Source of the DNA: a virus
Lineage: Duplodnaviria; Caudoviricetes
Length of the DNA: 25,271 nucleotides
Virus record (IMG/VR): IMGVR_UViG_3300037755_000321
Span: 1-25,271 of that record
Reading direction: 5' to 3' (one strand)
Within the stretch, counting starts at the first letter, position 1, and each line of letters starts with the position of its first letter. A program made the position numbers and the translations under genes. Positions 476 to 6,428 of this stretch are shown here, piece by piece. Under the pieces are notes generated by a model. The model was not told the origin of the DNA and made no database searches. It was given only the letters and a program-made list of their open reading frames with translations.

Positions 476-2298
476 CGGTCATTCCTCCTGTTGAACGCTG
501 CTTCAAGCTTATCTCTGCGGTATCCGCGAGCCTTCTCACCGTTGCCCATCGCGAAGGCGTTCGGTTCGACCTCAACGCCATGCACGCGCATACGCACGTG
601 CACCTCAGTGTCAGCGACGCCGAGCGCAGTAGCGAGCCGAGCCGTTGACACACCTTGCAGACCTTCGGACAGCTCAAGCGCGACCACAAGCGCATCCTTC
701 GCGTCGACCACGGGGGCGAGTGTCTTCGCCCGACGCCAAGGCGAACGCGGCTCAAGCGCCTTTACGTGCTCTTTCGTCATGTGCCACACGCGGGTAGGGT
801 CCGGTGTCCGGTCCTCACCCTGCACGCGGACAAGTGACCACCCGCCCTTGAGGAGGTCTTCTGCGTGCCAGCCCTTAGCGGTGGCATCCTCGCCAAGCAC
901 GTTGCGAGCCTCGGTAGGGGACGATACAGCCATGCACACCTGCGAGGTCAGCTGAGCCGAGATAGCGGAGTCGAGACCCTTACCGGGGCCGGTCACCGTG
1001 GGTTTCTGCGTAGCCCACCAGAGCGGAATCTGTGCCGACCGCGCGCGGCGAGCGATCGAACGCAGGCCGGTCACGGCGTCGGGAACCTCCGACATCAGCT
1101 CCGCACCCTCGTCAACGACGACGACGATACGCGGACGCTCAGGCGTAGGCTCCCAGGTGTCGAGGCTTTCGGTACGCATGATCGCCTCACGCTCTTTCAT
1201 CTCGGCCACTAGATCGTCAATGACCGACTGGATACCGTCCGCCTCGGATTCGACGCGAGCGACGTGTGCCCAGAGCGCGCCTTCTACTTTCAGGTCAATG
1301 ATGACGATCATGGTGTTCGGGAACGCGAGCGCTTCCGCCATGAGCACGCGCAACGCCACCGATTTGCCAGCGCCGGACATGCCCGCGACACTGAGCCGGT
1401 CGGTCACGTCGACACTGACGACTTCGCCCGTGTCGGCATTGAGCCCGAGGCCCTTGCGATCCGGCGACCAGGTGAGGTCCAGGTCTCGCACGCGGGTGCG
1501 GATACGGAGCACGGCCCGGTCTGCGGTACCTCCCGGCTTGACTTGCGTCTTGACCTCATCAGGAACCGCGAGCAGTGCTCGCAGTTGATCCACCTGGGTG
1601 TCCAGTTTCGCTGGCGTCCACAGTCCCGCGAACTCCATGGGGATCAGGATGCCGGACTCATCGATGACCGGCGAACCCGGGAACACCTCGTGCAGCTTGC
1701 GATCGGTTGCGTTGGCCTCCCAGGTGTGCACCCGGTCGATGATCGCTGATTCCTGCCCGTTGGGCTTGAGTCCCGCCTCAGCGTGTTTCCGGGAGAACAG
1801 GCGCGTCTTCTCTTCGGCGGGGGCGAGCGTGGTCACCGACTGCACCGGCGCTTTGTCGTCGCGGTGCGTCCACCCGAGCCATGCCAAGTACCCGTACGCG
1901 GCAGGCCATGCAAGGAGCGCGCCCGGGTTGCCTTCGATGGACACCCATGGCGGCACGATGAGCGCGCACGCAGGGACAGCGATCGTGAGCGCGCATCGGA
2001 GCGCGCGCGTGCCGAATGCGCGCGTGCTCACCTCAATGTCTGTGAGCGCGTGCGCGCGCGCAGGGGGCGCGCTGTGTGCGCGCCTGTTCTTCGACATGCG
2101 CGCGTGCGCGCGCATCGCCCGTTGGTGCTGCGCGCTGAGCGCGCGCGCATCTTGTTCACGGATGTGCGCCTCGATGCCTTCCGCGCGCGTCCATGCGCGC
2201 GCATCTTCGGCGAGCGCGCGCGCACCCCGCAGGGTGTAACCCCACGAGGTGCGCGCCATGCGCGCGTATGCGCGCTCGTTGTTCTCTTCGGCGCTCAT
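472..2298 (-). CDS. traB: FtsK/SpoIIIE-family DNA translocase, Streptomyces TraB-like conjugative transfer protein
   Basis: N-terminal hydrophobic segments, Walker A GMSGAGKS, IIDLK, Walker B VVVVDEGAE, ATQKP motif, and a C-terminal winged-helix-like region (STARLATALGV...RGYRR). This is the TraB domain order. Confidence 0.85.
   Translation of the reverse strand: MSAEENNERAYARMARTSWGYTLRGARALAEDARAWTRAEGIEAHIREQDARALSAQHQRAMRAHARMSKNRRAHSAPPARAHALTDIEVSTRAFGTRALRCALTIAVPACALIVPPWVSIEGNPGALLAWPAAYGYLAWLGWTHRDDKAPVQSVTTLAPAEEKTRLFSRKHAEAGLKPNGQESAIIDRVHTWEANATDRKLHEVFPGSPVIDESGILIPMEFAGLWTPAKLDTQVDQLRALLAVPDEVKTQVKPGGTADRAVLRIRTRVRDLDLTWSPDRKGLGLNADTGEVVSVDVTDRLSVAGMSGAGKSVALRVLMAEALAFPNTMIVIIDLKVEGALWAHVARVESEADGIQSVIDDLVAEMKEREAIMRTESLDTWEPTPERPRIVVVVDEGAELMSEVPDAVTGLRSIARRARSAQIPLWWATQKPTVTGPGKGLDSAISAQLTSQVCMAVSSPTEARNVLGEDATAKGWHAEDLLKGGWSLVRVQGEDRTPDPTRVWHMTKEHVKALEPRSPWRRAKTLAPVVDAKDALVVALELSEGLQGVSTARLATALGVADTEVHVRMRVHGVEVEPNAFAMGNGEKARGYRRDKLEAAFNRRNDR
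1915..2276. repeat. GCGCGC-rich patch 1, in the 5' part of the translocase gene
   Basis: About 18 separate GCGCGC-containing runs in ~360 bp, counted by eye. Confidence 0.9.
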
Positions 2299-2759
2299 CA
2301 GAATCCGCCAAGAGCCTCAGCAACGAGACCCTGCACAATGACCGTCAGGCCGCCGTACAGCACCTGAGCGAGCCCGAAAACCCACCCGTCCGCGCCGTGC
2401 GCAGCGATGGGACCGATCAGCAACGCCCAAATAGCGGCGTTGTTGTAATCGGGATCGTTCCAGATGTCGGCCACGGTCGCCACGATGGCGAGCACGCAGA
2501 TAACGCCCATGACGGCATGGGCGGGCACGACATCGAAGTTGCCCAACAGGCTGGTAAAACGGTCTGCGAGCCACGTTGACCACGTGGACGCGTAGATGAG
2601 GAACGAGGCGAAGATACCAAGCCCGAGAGCCACGTACGCCGCCTTCGTGCCACGGCCCCACTTGTAGTTGATGATGTGCGCGGCGATGAACAACACCACG
2701 GCAATCGGGCCGGTAGTGGGGTTGTTCGTGGCGTCTACAGCTGCCATAACTTCCATCAT
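2298..2759 (-). CDS. Multi-pass membrane protein, putative transfer/spread accessory
   Basis: 153 aa, 4-5 hydrophobic helices, GGAAGGA RBS, stop overlaps the translocase start. Confidence 0.8.
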   Translation of the reverse strand: MMEVMAAVDATNNPTTGPIAVVLFIAAHIINYKWGRGTKAAYVALGLGIFASFLIYASTWSTWLADRFTSLLGNFDVVPAHAVMGVICVLAIVATVADIWNDPDYNNAAIWALLIGPIAAHGADGWVFGLAQVLYGGLTVIVQGLVAEALGGF

Positions 2760-2794
2760 TTCATCCTTCCGTCTAGGTCTTAGGTCTGCATTAA

Positions 2795-2800
2795 ATTATA
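2795..2800 (-). promoter_or_regulatory. Putative -10 box (TATAAT) for the membrane protein-translocase operon
   Basis: Perfect TATAAT ~36 bp upstream of the start, followed by CAGACCTA. The same arrangement occurs at 7846-7851. Confidence 0.6.
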
Positions 2801-2809
2801 CACCCGCCT

Positions 2810-3081
2810 GGCACGGCACACCAGGTGGGATGCCCTCGTGGTTGCGGTGACCTGCGGAAACGCTTCGAGAGCGGTGCTCTCGGCACACCGTGCCGCTGTG
2901 CCAAAACAGTGTTTCCGCAGGTCAACCGTGGTTTAGCGATGTTCCAGTGGGTGTGCCGTTGGCACGACTCCGGCACACCTTCCCTAAGGGTGTGCCGGTC
3001 GCTGTGCCGCTAGTACCCGAGCGCCTTGCGGACCGGCGTGATCCACCTGGCGACGTGGTTGGGCACCCGCTGTGCGGGCAC
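2810..3081. repeat. GGCAC/GTGCC repeat cluster with a 14-bp inverted repeat (clt-like or operator array)
   Basis: 12 GGCAC/GTGCC copies. TGACCTGCGGAAAC (2848-2861) is inverted at 2911-2924. CCGGCACACC/GGTGTGCCGG hairpin at 2970-2998. Confidence 0.75.
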
Positions 3082-4251
3082 TGCAAGCTCGCCGCGCGTG
3101 GGAAGCTTGCCATTCTTCTCCACGTACTCAAGCATCCATGCCTTCATGTCCACAGGCGCGGGGCTGTGCTCTTTGATCGCGTCGATCAGTTCGGACACAG
3201 GATGCGCGCTCACGACGGGAGCAGGCGCGCGCACCTCTTCGACATGCGCGCTCGTCTCGGTGAGCGCGCGCGCGTCGCCCGGAACATGCGCGCTCTCTTC
3301 GAGTGCGCGCGCGGGAGGCGCGCTCACCGGGCGCACAACGCGCGCGCTGTGAGTGCGCGCGCTCGTCGACGCGCGCTCATTCCATGGGTTCATGTGCGCG
3401 ACCGCTTCGGGAGCGAGCGCGCGCGCACCGGCATAGCGCGCGGCGATGCGCGTCTGAATGCGCGCGCGCACCTCGGGAGTAAGGATGCCGAGCGCGTCCG
3501 CGCGCGCCCATGCGCGATCGTATGCGCGCTCATGGAACGCGCGCATCCACTTGTGCCCGACGTTCACGGCGTAGGCGTGGTTCACAATCTGGGTGATGAG
3601 TCGTTCAGTGACGACCGTGCTCGCATCCTGCGAGGTAGCCTTGCCGCGCTTCATGCGGTACCAGGTGACCAGTGGAGAAGTCTTGTGCGGGCGCCCGAAG
3701 GTGATGACCACGTGCCACGCGACGGCAGCCAGGAGAGGCCACAGCGCGAAGATGGGGCTGTCACCACCCCACCAGGCGATGACACCCATGAGCGACGCCA
3801 TCGACCACACGCCAGCCTCATACCGGTTGAAGCCTTCACCCTTGGTCATGTGCCGCAGGGACAGCGCGCCAAGGATCGCAAGCCAAGCCTCGAACACGAT
3901 CACAGCGGAGATCGCTGCGTCAAGCGAGGTGAGGCCGATGTGCTGGATAGCGGTGATCGTCGCGTGCGCGCTCAGGTTCGTTGCCGCGAGCGCAACGAGC
4001 GCGACTGCGCTCATGAGCGTGACGCGCAGGCGCGCGTCCGCGCGCGCGCCTGATGCGCGCGCATCGGCCTTGCGCTGCGCGCGCGCTTCCATGTCGGGGC
4101 GCTTGATCTCGCCCCAGATGCGCGCGCGTTCCCGTGCGCGCTCGCGCGCGCCTTGGGAGGTTCGCCAGAAGATGAGCGCGAGCATGAGCGCGCCCAGCGC
4201 GCACGCGCTCATGAGTGCGCCTGACGGTGTTGACGTAAAATCTTCCATCAT
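3010..4251 (-). CDS. Membrane protein with Spd/DUF2637-like architecture (TM bundle, Pro/Ala-rich linker, C-terminal HTH-like region)
   Basis: Several TM segments, low-complexity linker, C-terminal LPTRGELAV...VARWI. GAAGGA RBS favours a start at 4251 or 4248 over 4281. Upstream of the translocase on the same strand. Confidence 0.7.
   Translation of the reverse strand: MMEDFTSTPSGALMSACALGALMLALIFWRTSQGARERARERARIWGEIKRPDMEARAQRKADARASGARADARLRVTLMSAVALVALAATNLSAHATITAIQHIGLTSLDAAISAVIVFEAWLAILGALSLRHMTKGEGFNRYEAGVWSMASLMGVIAWWGGDSPIFALWPLLAAVAWHVVITFGRPHKTSPLVTWYRMKRGKATSQDASTVVTERLITQIVNHAYAVNVGHKWMRAFHERAYDRAWARADALGILTPEVRARIQTRIAARYAGARALAPEAVAHMNPWNERASTSARTHSARVVRPVSAPPARALEESAHVPGDARALTETSAHVEEVRAPAPVVSAHPVSELIDAIKEHSPAPVDMKAWMLEYVEKNGKLPTRGELAVPAQRVPNHVARWITPVRKALGY
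3203..3545. repeat. GCGCGC-rich patch 2
   Basis: About 16 GCGCGC-containing runs in ~340 bp, counted by eye. Confidence 0.9.
3961..4210. repeat. GCGCGC-rich patch 3
   Basis: About 10 GCGCGC-containing runs in ~250 bp, counted by eye. Confidence 0.85.
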
Positions 4252-4286
4252 GAGTCCTTCATCTTGGGGGACTCCCACCATAGCAC

Positions 4287-4325
4287 GAAAGAAAGCGGGT
4301 ACCCCTTGGGTACCCGCTTTCTTTC
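4287..4325. terminator. Bidirectional intrinsic terminator
   Basis: Perfect 18-bp inverted repeat GAAAGAAAGCGGGTACCC-ctt-GGGTACCCGCTTTCTTTC with a T-rich tail on both strands. Confidence 0.85.
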
Positions 4326-4400
4326 ACCGTACGGAACTCACGCCTAGCTTTCACTGCCAGCAGGCACCTTATAGACCGGTTCCGAACTCTTTATCAATTA

Positions 4401-4846: not shown

Positions 4847-4963
4847 TAGGGAGAACAAGCCTCGCGAAGACTCACCCTCCCAGATGTTTGGAGATGTGGT
4901 ACACCAAAACCACATGACGGCACTTAACCCGCCTATACCAACGTCGCGACATCCGGCGTCCCG

Positions 4964-5036
4964 TACACCGTGAGGGAGTCGAACCCCCGACCCGCTGTTT
5001 GTAAGACAGCCGCTCGTTCCACTGAGCTAACGGTGC
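4964..5036 (-). tRNA. tRNA-Val (UAC)
   Basis: GCACCGT/ACGGTGT-A acceptor, GCTGT-CTTACAA-ACAGC anticodon arm, GTTCGAC T loop. Confidence 0.93.
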
Positions 5037-5169
5037 TTGCGGGGCACATGCCTAGATGTCGTTTAAGACTACGGATCTCCATCCGAGTCCCCCTGTTGGC
5101 GAACACCCAGCCGGTTACGGCTGTCATTCACACCCCGGAAGGTACCTCCCGAGGTCCTGTACCCCGCAA
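5037..5169 (-). ncRNA. Candidate multi-stem structured RNA (~133 nt), family unknown
   Basis: 12-bp closing stem TTGCGGGGTACA/TGTGCCCCGCAA encloses three hairpins. G-U pairs favour the minus strand. Abuts the 5' end of tRNA-Val. Confidence 0.6.
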
Positions 5170-5222
5170 GCGTACGCACTATCACTAATGCGCCCTACAC
5201 GGTGCTGACCGGTACCTCATTG

Positions 5223-5289
5223 CGTGCTGCCGGGGACTTGAACCCCGCACCTCCATTACCTGGTGCTCTGCCAACTGAGCTAGCAGCAC
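5223..5289 (-). ncRNA. tRNA-like RNA with a truncated anticodon arm (67 nt)
   Basis: Perfect acceptor stem GTGCTGC/GCAGCAC, D arm GCTC-AGTTGGCA-GAGC, T arm CGGGG-TTCAAGT-CCCCG, but the anticodon arm is only CCA-GGTAA-TGG. Confidence 0.85.
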
Positions 5290-5878: not shown

Positions 5879-5909
5879 CCCCGGGGTCAAACTTTCTTGT
5901 TCCCGCAGG

Positions 5910-6428
5910 TCAGACCAGGTACCACAGGTACTTGGTACCTTCGGTGTTCTCCATGCGAACCTTCCCGTCACTCTGGAGGCGGCGCAGCGACGTGTACACG
6001 TTCGCCTCCTTCTCGCGGAGTTCCGTAGCGAGCTGTGGCTTCGAGAGACCTTCGGGGTTCTCGGCGAGCAACTGGAGGATCGTCGCGTTCCGCTTCGCCA
6101 CAGCGGCGGACATCGGACGGCCACGCTTCGGCTCAATGGCTTCGCTCACCTGCTCAGGGCTGGCGGGGTCGAATTCCGGAAGAGGTGTTCCGCTGGTGGG
6201 GTCCAGCTCCACAGGCAGTTCTGTCACAGGCTCAGGCGCCGAAGCGTGAACGAGTGCAGCCGCTTCCGCAGCCGCAGCTTTCATCGCTTCGAGGTCAGGC
6301 TTCGGCTCCGCGACCGGGGTGGGCGTCGCGCGAGGCGCAGCCTTAGGTGCGGGTTCCGCTGCCTTCCGCTGCATCTCCGCTCGCTTCTCGAACGCGTTCT
6401 TTTTCTGTCGGTTTGTCGCCACGTACAT
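5910..6428 (-). CDS. Winged-helix DNA-binding protein with an AT-hook-like motif
   Basis: Pro/Ala-rich N-terminus, PKRGRP, then ILQLLAENPEGLSKPQLATELREKEANVYTSLRRL. GGAGGT RBS. Confidence 0.75.
   Translation of the reverse strand: MYVATNRQKKNAFEKRAEMQRKAAEPAPKAAPRATPTPVAEPKPDLEAMKAAAAEAAALVHASAPEPVTELPVELDPTSGTPLPEFDPASPEQVSEAIEPKRGRPMSAAVAKRNATILQLLAENPEGLSKPQLATELREKEANVYTSLRRLQSDGKVRMENTEGTKYLWYLV

Follow-up and report, generated by a model that had tools for sequence, protein, structure and literature searches.

The window analysed here, a 25.3-kb virus record (IMGVR_UViG_3300037755_000321) with an estimated completeness of 41%, carries an array of 44 GCGCGC runs written into the coding sequences of two genes of a conjugation-type module, one encoding an FtsK/TraB-type DNA translocase (tra) and the other a 413-residue membrane protein (spd). 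This array is a real and selected feature of the DNA. We tentatively favour, at somewhat less than even confidence, the reading that the runs are binding sites for the predicted helix-turn-helix (HTH) tail of the membrane protein (3010-4251), which would tether phage DNA at the membrane beside the pump.

In the mechanism that we propose, the word, which has the core GCGC and commonly reads RTG[A/C]GCGC on both strands, would be bound within the two coding sequences by this tail, and this binding would keep the DNA of the phage anchored at the membrane next to the TraB-type pump. The pump itself would load instead at a non-coding array of GGCAC words at 2810-3008, and the tether might help phage DNA to pass from cell to cell or through the cross-walls of hyphae. 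Most sites fall outside the transmembrane (TM) core, the ATPase domain and the C-terminal domains, in places where the proteins probably tolerate Ala/Arg/Ser/His-rich sequence.

Enrichment of GCGCGC in the two genes

Counting as a run at least three GC units, we found 44 runs within the 0.96 kb of three patches (Table 1) and 22 in the remaining 24.3 kb, where no 360-bp segment holds more than three. All 44 patch runs are coding and they are spread over 2.3 kb. A preliminary description of this DNA had estimated about 18, 16 and 10 runs in the three patches and had called the hexamer sporadic elsewhere, and the exact counts agree with both statements. Its further claim that the runs largely avoid the ATPase core and the central TM region holds, with two isolated runs in the ATPase core and one in the TM core of spd, but patch 1 does overlap the hydrophobic helix predicted first in Tra (about residues 100-120). 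Patch 2 covers the conserved helical part and the disordered linker that precede the C-terminal domain of the membrane protein. The longest run in the window comprises five units, the mean gap between runs is 21-26 bp, and all three reading frames are used (run starts 7/5/6, 5/6/5 and 3/6/1 in patches 1, 2 and 3). The flanks of the runs are mostly AT, GT, AC or GA, on either side. The extended word RTG[A/C]GCGC occurs at 44 sites inside the patches (26 plus, 18 minus) and at 6 outside, and strand use is symmetric for it (26/18) as well as for GCGCGC (71/71), the core being palindromic.

When the protein was kept fixed and codons were drawn anew from the usage of 11 further genes in the window, the patches contained 27, 27 and 17 hexamers compared with 4.8, 4.0 and 3.0 expected, a 5- to 7-fold excess, and the observed count was reached in 0 of 5000 draws. 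To avoid hand-picked patch borders, we also ran whole-gene tests. Codon redrawing gave 29 hexamers against 6.6 expected in tra (maximum 19 in 500 draws) and 45 against 7.4 in spd (maximum 16), and synonymous shuffles within each gene gave expectations of 11.1 (maximum 20) for tra and 25.0 (maximum 37) for spd. The excess thus survives codon-preserving control for amino-acid content, which by itself accounts for about a sixth of the patch counts.

Conservation of the array among relatives

The membrane-protein gene has 31 distinct relatives (about 60-92% identity), and 30 of them keep 18-28 runs in spd. Across 29 spd and 24 tra genes, the four-fold third bases of Ala and Arg codons equal those of the window at a rate of 0.78-0.89 inside the patches compared with 0.50-0.61 outside, the CGC share of Arg codons is 78-95% inside compared with 26-53% outside, and individual sites have been gained and lost while the total count stays, most visibly in tra. 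Constrained synonymous sites together with site turnover at a steady count imply that selection maintains the DNA word, and they support the conclusion that the array is under selection at the DNA level. The preliminary description had likewise argued for selection on DNA rather than protein, and the protein-fixed nulls point the same way. There are five complete relatives (58-61 kb, with direct terminal repeats in four). In three of them, G001 and G004 over the full set of matches and G005 among the matches listed, the word clusters at the module and nowhere else.

One relative, L086 (a contig shared with L195; L192 is similar), carries a changed word. In both of its genes the word has shifted to GAGCGCTC, and the array is equally enriched (GAGCGC, 41 copies against 7.7 expected). 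It contains 7 runs of at least three units and no alternating purine-pyrimidine tract of at least 12 bp, compared with 14 such tracts in the patches of the window, so that long alternation is not conserved across carriers of the array. The GGCAC array and the Tra helix EVHARMR of L086 are unchanged, and its tail helix, S-E-S-Y-C-R-K-W, is found in 1 of 119 proteins. The shift argues against Z-DNA and against Tra as the reader, although it represents one event only, in a divergent lineage where the Tra wing also differs at two positions.

In-gene words of Streptomyces elements

We surveyed 927 open reading frames (ORFs) in 108 loci with a protein-fixed 6-mer scan. A top 6-mer with a z score of at least 5 was present in 18 of the 61 ORFs with 3-5 TM segments and 250-560 residues but in only 4 of 248 other ORFs in this length range; by class, the numbers were 18/61 (3-5 TM), 7/122 (P-loop) and 12/744 (others). 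These classes are rough, as 8 of the 61 'spd-like' ORFs merely lie antisense to genuine spd genes and Rep proteins account for some of the 'tra' calls. The correct spd and tra genes were recovered by tblastn for the comparison of helix with word.

Where the Tra helix is GLSKxxVSK, GTGAAC is present in 6-12 copies in 11 loci with a GWSVGW tail, whereas 8 with a TSPANAR tail have 0-1 GTGAAC and 5-8 GGTCGA. Sorted by tail, GTGAAC reaches 8.5 per kb in 20 genes with GWS[VI]GW, and GGTCGA 5.7 per kb in 16 genes with TSPANAR. A single residue of the GWS-type tail (33 genes) also goes with a single base, as V, I or L is accompanied by GTGAAC or GCGAAC in 25 of 25 genes and T or S by GTGAGC in 7 of 8; on the TM-core tree, three changes are required to account for T/S, one in a six-gene clade and two at single tips. 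Plasmid genes have the same kind of word: a pJV1 gene (666-1781) contains GTGAGC 16 times against 2.6 expected, the pSN22 region has 18 copies of GTGAGC (the gene is split in its record and was left out of the tree), and the DUF2637 gene of pWTY27, with helix GWSVAW, contains GCGAAC 16 times against 2.4 expected. We take these three genes to be spdB2, a label that is partly ours, the records giving hypothetical protein or DUF2637. The clt words mapped in pJV1 and pWTY27 differ from these in-gene words and cluster beside traB. Taken together, these comparisons show that in Streptomyces elements the in-gene word follows the predicted Spd HTH, not the Tra helix.

Other words stood out as well. 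CCGCTAC is strongly enriched (z 6-10) in Streptomyces integrated elements, within and near their excisionase/integrase-like genes (L117 9438-9818, L153 8723-10621, L154, L167 9745-10194 and L171 9069-9413), where it probably marks recombination arm sites. Further viral contigs have in-gene words of their own, namely CGTCCC in a membrane gene and tra (L206 1976-6323), CTGTCC (L187) and CGAACA/CGGAAC (L217, L218).

A broader proposal, which we regard as doubtful, is that self-addressed membrane DNA anchors make up a class so far unrecognised, to which the spreading proteins of actinomycete plasmids, of integrated elements and of phages without an integrase would belong. Every such protein would write 10-45 operator copies for its own HTH into its gene, following a one-residue/one-base code (T/S with GTGAGC, V/I/L with GTGAAC, and a G-to-A change with GCGAAC). 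The present phage family would then have the densest array, extended onto the pump gene, and would hand its genome to the TraB pump and spread through the mycelium without virions.

The membrane-protein tail as a proposed reader

By hydropathy the membrane protein has about four TM segments, and it is encoded beside tra with a soluble C-terminal part, the layout of SpdB2. The start of its gene was chosen by comparison with relatives. The protein has no Pfam match, with PF10935 absent from 0/15 family members' hit lists, that is, matched by none of the 15 at E<=1 (the pJV1 protein likewise lacks a PF10935 match), and a plasmid search with it gave no match. The whole model gave no significant Foldseek match, Atlas matches were all below 0.9, and VIA-align returned generic helical bundles only, with the tail barely tested. 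From the structure model we infer that the tail is an HTH. Across 119 proteins its helix positions are constrained (G/A398 96%, H/N399 93%, K/R402 100%, W403 100%) while the scaffold varies; given that these putative DNA-facing positions are held, the tail alleles may share one specificity. There is also a precedent for a reader with sites in its own gene, in that SpdA2 is reported to bind palindromes within its gene (PMC4170104).

A number of observations weigh against the tail as reader. The HTH assignment is weak (hhalign 10-25%; Foldseek LexA row, E 4.3), and the protein has no detectable homology to DUF2637/SpdB2 (hhalign probability 1% against DUF2637-type proteins), so the plasmid result carries over by layout analogy only. 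SpdB2 of pSVH1 is itself reported to bind double-stranded DNA non-specifically (PMC4447253, PMC4170104). In the plasmid comparison, none of the tested words was found in nine spdB genes with the pIJ101-type tail, nor in pIJ101 itself. As an in-gene word travels with its gene, independent evidence comes solely from the single-residue switches, which have three origins; two are single tips, and one (L108, 8 vs 6) has not flipped. Within the phage family, the window allele has the rare N398 (2/119) yet the usual word. The tail moreover behaves as a cassette, with five close pairs differing by a TM distance of 0.01-0.06 and an HTH distance of 0.42-0.64 while the word is unchanged; contigs that skip the tail (joints at about 3047/3058-3260/3265) occurred in 4/4 sediment runs; and no allele-specific 6-mer was found for four tail alleles. 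Partial Mantel tests on 25 family members, which are confounded by kinship and did not separate the Spd and Tra readers, gave r of 0.14-0.28 between the word flanks and the Spd HTH compared with 0.30-0.46 for the Tra C-terminus.

A non-coding candidate for the loading site

The non-coding DNA between the two membrane-protein genes contains a second array, which the preliminary description had missed. GGCAC(A/G) reaches 33 per kb in 2810-3008 compared with 1.4 elsewhere, and a perfect 14-bp inverted pair (2848-2861 / 2911-2924) lies amid the words. This is the layout of a clt, a compact non-coding repeat cluster with inverted repeats near tra (10 words in 200 bp), here with words facing both ways. 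The array is present with 3-11 copies in 32/32 family members, and its consensus, CGGCACACC, is similar to the clt words mapped in pJV1 (CCGCACA[C/G][C/G]) and pWTY27 (TGACACC), as these are reported (PMC3583192). We therefore consider 2810-3008 a better clt candidate than the GCGCGC patches, and the Tra C-terminal domain may be what reads it. The GGCAC(A/G) words could alternatively be operators of the adjacent promoter; a sigma-70 scan found no full promoter near the TATAAT hexamer.

The inverted pair, TGACCTGCGGAAAC, is conserved in the family, and CCGCAGGTCA is found again at 5903-5912. In L210 (3040-3331), GGAACAC repeats lying between tra and spd are bordered by a similar inverted pair. 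The Tra of this locus has a similar C-terminal type, but the in-gene word of L210, with 16 copies in 360 bp, is TGAGAC.

Alternative explanations

The same reader might do another job. Binding of the tail could repress transcription of its own gene and of tra, a roadblock autorepression of membrane-damaging genes that we consider improbable. Such a role would suit the position of two of the three patches over gene 5' ends and the pores that SpdB2 is reported to form (PMC4447253), as well as the finding that no GntR gene (TraR/KorA-type repressor) was detected in 5/5 complete relatives, GntR-carrying plasmids being without the word in tra. However, plasmids with GntR still carry the word in spdB2, and neither the promoter-side DNA of the window nor the first gene of the tra operon (2298-2759) has any run.

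Equally improbable in our view is a different reader, which could be a host nucleoid protein, another phage protein or the middle domain of the membrane protein (residues 246-293). It would account for the free swapping of tail alleles at a constant word, and residues 246-293 are the least variable part of the membrane protein (entropy 0.29), although this conservation is partly imposed by the array within it; the words of different elements that follow their HTH would be left unexplained. A candidate is a 172-residue protein (5910-6428) with no Pfam or PHROG match, whose C-terminus looks winged-helix-like by eye.

The preliminary description had seen the patches as clt-like loading sites for the winged-helix domain of the translocase, inherited together with the gene of their reader. 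An array of protein-binding sites is still the best reading, but we rate its assignment to the translocase slightly below the two preceding possibilities, given the separate clt-like non-coding array and an in-gene word that follows the Spd HTH. The Tra C-terminus is conserved, like the word, and is its best within-family correlate (partial Mantel r 0.30-0.46 with the word flanks, kin-confounded), and the clt of pWTY27 is reported to overlap traA by 16 bp (PMC3583192). As for the covariation of word and Tra recognition helix that the preliminary description had looked to, the correlation with the Tra C-terminus within the family is positive but confounded by kinship, the word is independent of the Tra helix type in Streptomyces elements, and in L086 it changed while the Tra helix and the intergenic array did not. 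Furthermore, the mapped clts are reported as compact, mostly non-coding direct repeats (PMC3583192), whereas the 44 patch runs are all coding and extend over 2.3 kb, and their palindromic core and strand-symmetric use differ from directional 7-9-bp direct repeats.

A structural signal in the form of Z-DNA, cruciforms or mRNA hairpins is quite improbable. The window has 18 alternating purine-pyrimidine tracts of at least 12 bp and 14 of them, up to 22 bp long, sit in the patches; the predicted folding of the patch mRNA is also more stable, at -0.58 to -0.60 kcal/mol per base compared with -0.43 in control regions. Z-DNA, which the preliminary description had offered as an alternative, is nevertheless weakened by the dense array of L086 with no such tract and by eight other relatives with only 4-6. 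The runs of the window never exceed five units, the analogous words GTGAAC, GTGAGC, GGTCGA and TGAGAC are non-alternating, and no conserved mRNA structure was found, as the predicted pairs are not common to eight relatives (Jaccard 0.00-0.09; structure conservation index 0.44-0.58 compared with 0.30-0.45 in controls).

Finally, it is very improbable that the array merely results from slippage at GC dinucleotides or from selection for a peptide rich in Ala and Arg. In favour of such an origin, distant homologues (24-36% identity) are also Ala/Arg-rich at their N-termini at the protein level and amino-acid content alone yields 3-5 hexamers per patch, but the excess over the protein-fixed nulls, the use of three frames, the constrained synonymous sites, the intact reading frames and the short runs all speak otherwise. 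Chance, amino-acid content and slippage were accordingly rejected on the protein-fixed nulls and the constrained synonymous sites.

The module and its surroundings

On the minus strand, the module consists of the gene for the 413-residue membrane protein, 250 bp of non-coding DNA, a gene for a 153-residue membrane protein and the FtsK/TraB-type gene for 608 residues (Table 1). The tra product has an FtsK/SpoIIIE ATPase domain with Walker A/B motifs, and the closest characterised relative found for it is pIJ101 Tra (35.6% over residues 180-526). Its structure model is poor, with a mean predicted local distance difference test (pLDDT) score of 56. Pfam matches of its C-terminal domain are weak and below cut-off (HTH_AsnC E 0.05, DUF3631 E 0.08), and no alignment to the pIJ101-type winged helix was obtained (hhalign 0.1%).

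Table 1 Positions of the array and of the module features in the window
Feature	Position	Strand	Description
Patch 1	1917..2275	.	18 GCGCGC runs, codons 7-128 of tra gene
Patch 2	3204..3544	.	16 runs, codons about 236-350 of membrane-protein gene
Patch 3	3966..4202	.	10 runs, codons 14-98 of membrane-protein gene
Membrane-protein gene (spd), 413 residues	3010..4251	-	Resembles SpdB2 in layout only, with about four hydrophobic segments, a linker and a helical domain at the C-terminus
C-terminal four-helix domain, residues 352-411	3019..3198	-	pLDDT about 88; predicted HTH; proposed GCGCGC reader
Non-coding array	2810..3008	.	10 GGCAC(A/G) words, 5 per strand; family consensus CGGCACACC; candidate clt
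TATAAT hexamer	2795..2800	-	Also present in relatives (conserved); likely -10 box for the operon of the small gene and tra
Small membrane-protein gene, 153 residues	2298..2759	-	Translationally coupled to tra; without any run
tra, 608 residues	472..2298	-	FtsK/SpoIIIE-family translocase; Pfam PF01580 E 1.6e-12; Foldseek to FtsK motor E 1.8e-8
Tra C-terminal domain, residues 536-607	478..693	-	Predicted three helices and beta-hairpin, winged-helix-like topology; conserved in relatives

The C-terminal domain of the membrane protein (cassette 3058-3260) is swapped among co-occurring phage populations and between nearly identical relatives, and its left joint (coding strand) lies at the GC run 3264-3274. 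For the small membrane gene (2298-2759), identity between relatives lies anywhere from 28% to 97% and does not follow that of the neighbouring genes, which suggests allele swapping, for example of an exclusion or partner-specificity factor. Just upstream of the 413-residue membrane-protein gene and a TATGGT hexamer lies a long perfect inverted repeat (4287-4325) with A/T tails on both sides, possibly a two-way terminator or an operator.

Elsewhere the window encodes PolA, an SNF2 helicase, Sak4, SSB, a primase, a methylase and three tRNAs. A tRNA-like element with a T-loop-like word and an acceptor stem (5224-5289, minus strand), not called by ARAGORN, lies between tRNA-Val and tRNA-Met. No tyrosine integrase was found in 5/5 complete relatives, serine integrases not having been searched for, and a scan of GTDB genomes with the family alignment confirmed no relative. 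The host is presumably an actinomycete, because the closest Tra relatives come from Streptomyces phages and plasmids.

Comparison with known systems

The known case of sites inside the gene of their own reader is SpdA2-sps of pIJ101, which is reported to affect plasmid stability and to leave an SRDD/E peptide imprint (PMC4170104). Like the array described here, it is a repeated palindromic word in a transfer-region gene with an imprint on the peptide, and there the word is bound by the gene's own product. In contrast, the sps palindrome is 12 bp long and has 2-3 copies, and SpdA2 is a small protein with a predicted zinc-finger motif, whereas here 44 short GC runs extend over two genes (413- and 608-residue products) and we propose as their reader a polytopic membrane protein whose HTH is predicted. 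SpdA has also been proposed as a link to DNA (PMC4447253).

For TraB-clt/TRS systems (pIJ101, pJV1, pSVH1, pWTY27), the FtsK-family pump is a true relative, as seen from its identity to pIJ101 Tra. The GCGCGC patches differ from clt/TRS in being coding, palindromic and spread over 2.3 kb, and the intergenic array differs in lying upstream of the tra operon with words on both strands.

SpdB2 has been described as a protein with four TM segments that forms pores and binds DNA non-specifically, and some actinophages are reported to carry homologues (PMC4447253). The SpdB2/DUF2637 proteins (PF10935; pSVH1, pJV1, pSN22, pWTY27) resemble the membrane protein of the window in having several TM segments, a linker and a C-terminal HTH-like domain and in being encoded beside tra. 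The spdB2-type genes of pJV1, pSN22 and pWTY27 carry an in-gene word in 16-18 copies, and the GTGAGC of pJV1 is contained in RTGAGCGC of the phage family. In these plasmids the word is confined to the spd gene, whereas here it reaches tra too, and there is no detectable sequence homology. We found no description of in-gene words in spdB2-type genes in the literature covered, which comprised main texts only, with the original plasmid papers mostly outside it. If the in-gene words are operators of the Spd tail, how Spd proteins choose the DNA that they spread becomes testable in pJV1, pSN22 and pWTY27. The array is also a case of a DNA signal shaping protein sequence, the peptides being ARA, SAH or VSA here and VST, VNT or ANT in the case of the plasmids. 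It further supports the view that the conjugation-type module works in these phages, in which no tyrosine integrase was found.

Cultured Woodruffvirus phages of Streptomyces (YDN12, TP1604, Xkcd426, Mischief19) likewise combine a membrane-plus-HTH gene and an FtsK-like gene with an intergenic repeat, which in YDN12 is GGAACG. CGTTGC, the candidate for their in-gene word, is only weakly enriched (z 4-5) and, unlike here, their tail is MerR-like. In YDN12, 17 of the 71 genome copies of CGTTGC fall in the last 6.5 kb, and a weaker clustering over two genes was seen in L054 (YDN12; 2422-3371, 4220-4337 and 4905-5257) and L097 (Mischief19). As cultured Streptomyces phages, YDN12 and Mischief19 could provide a tractable model.

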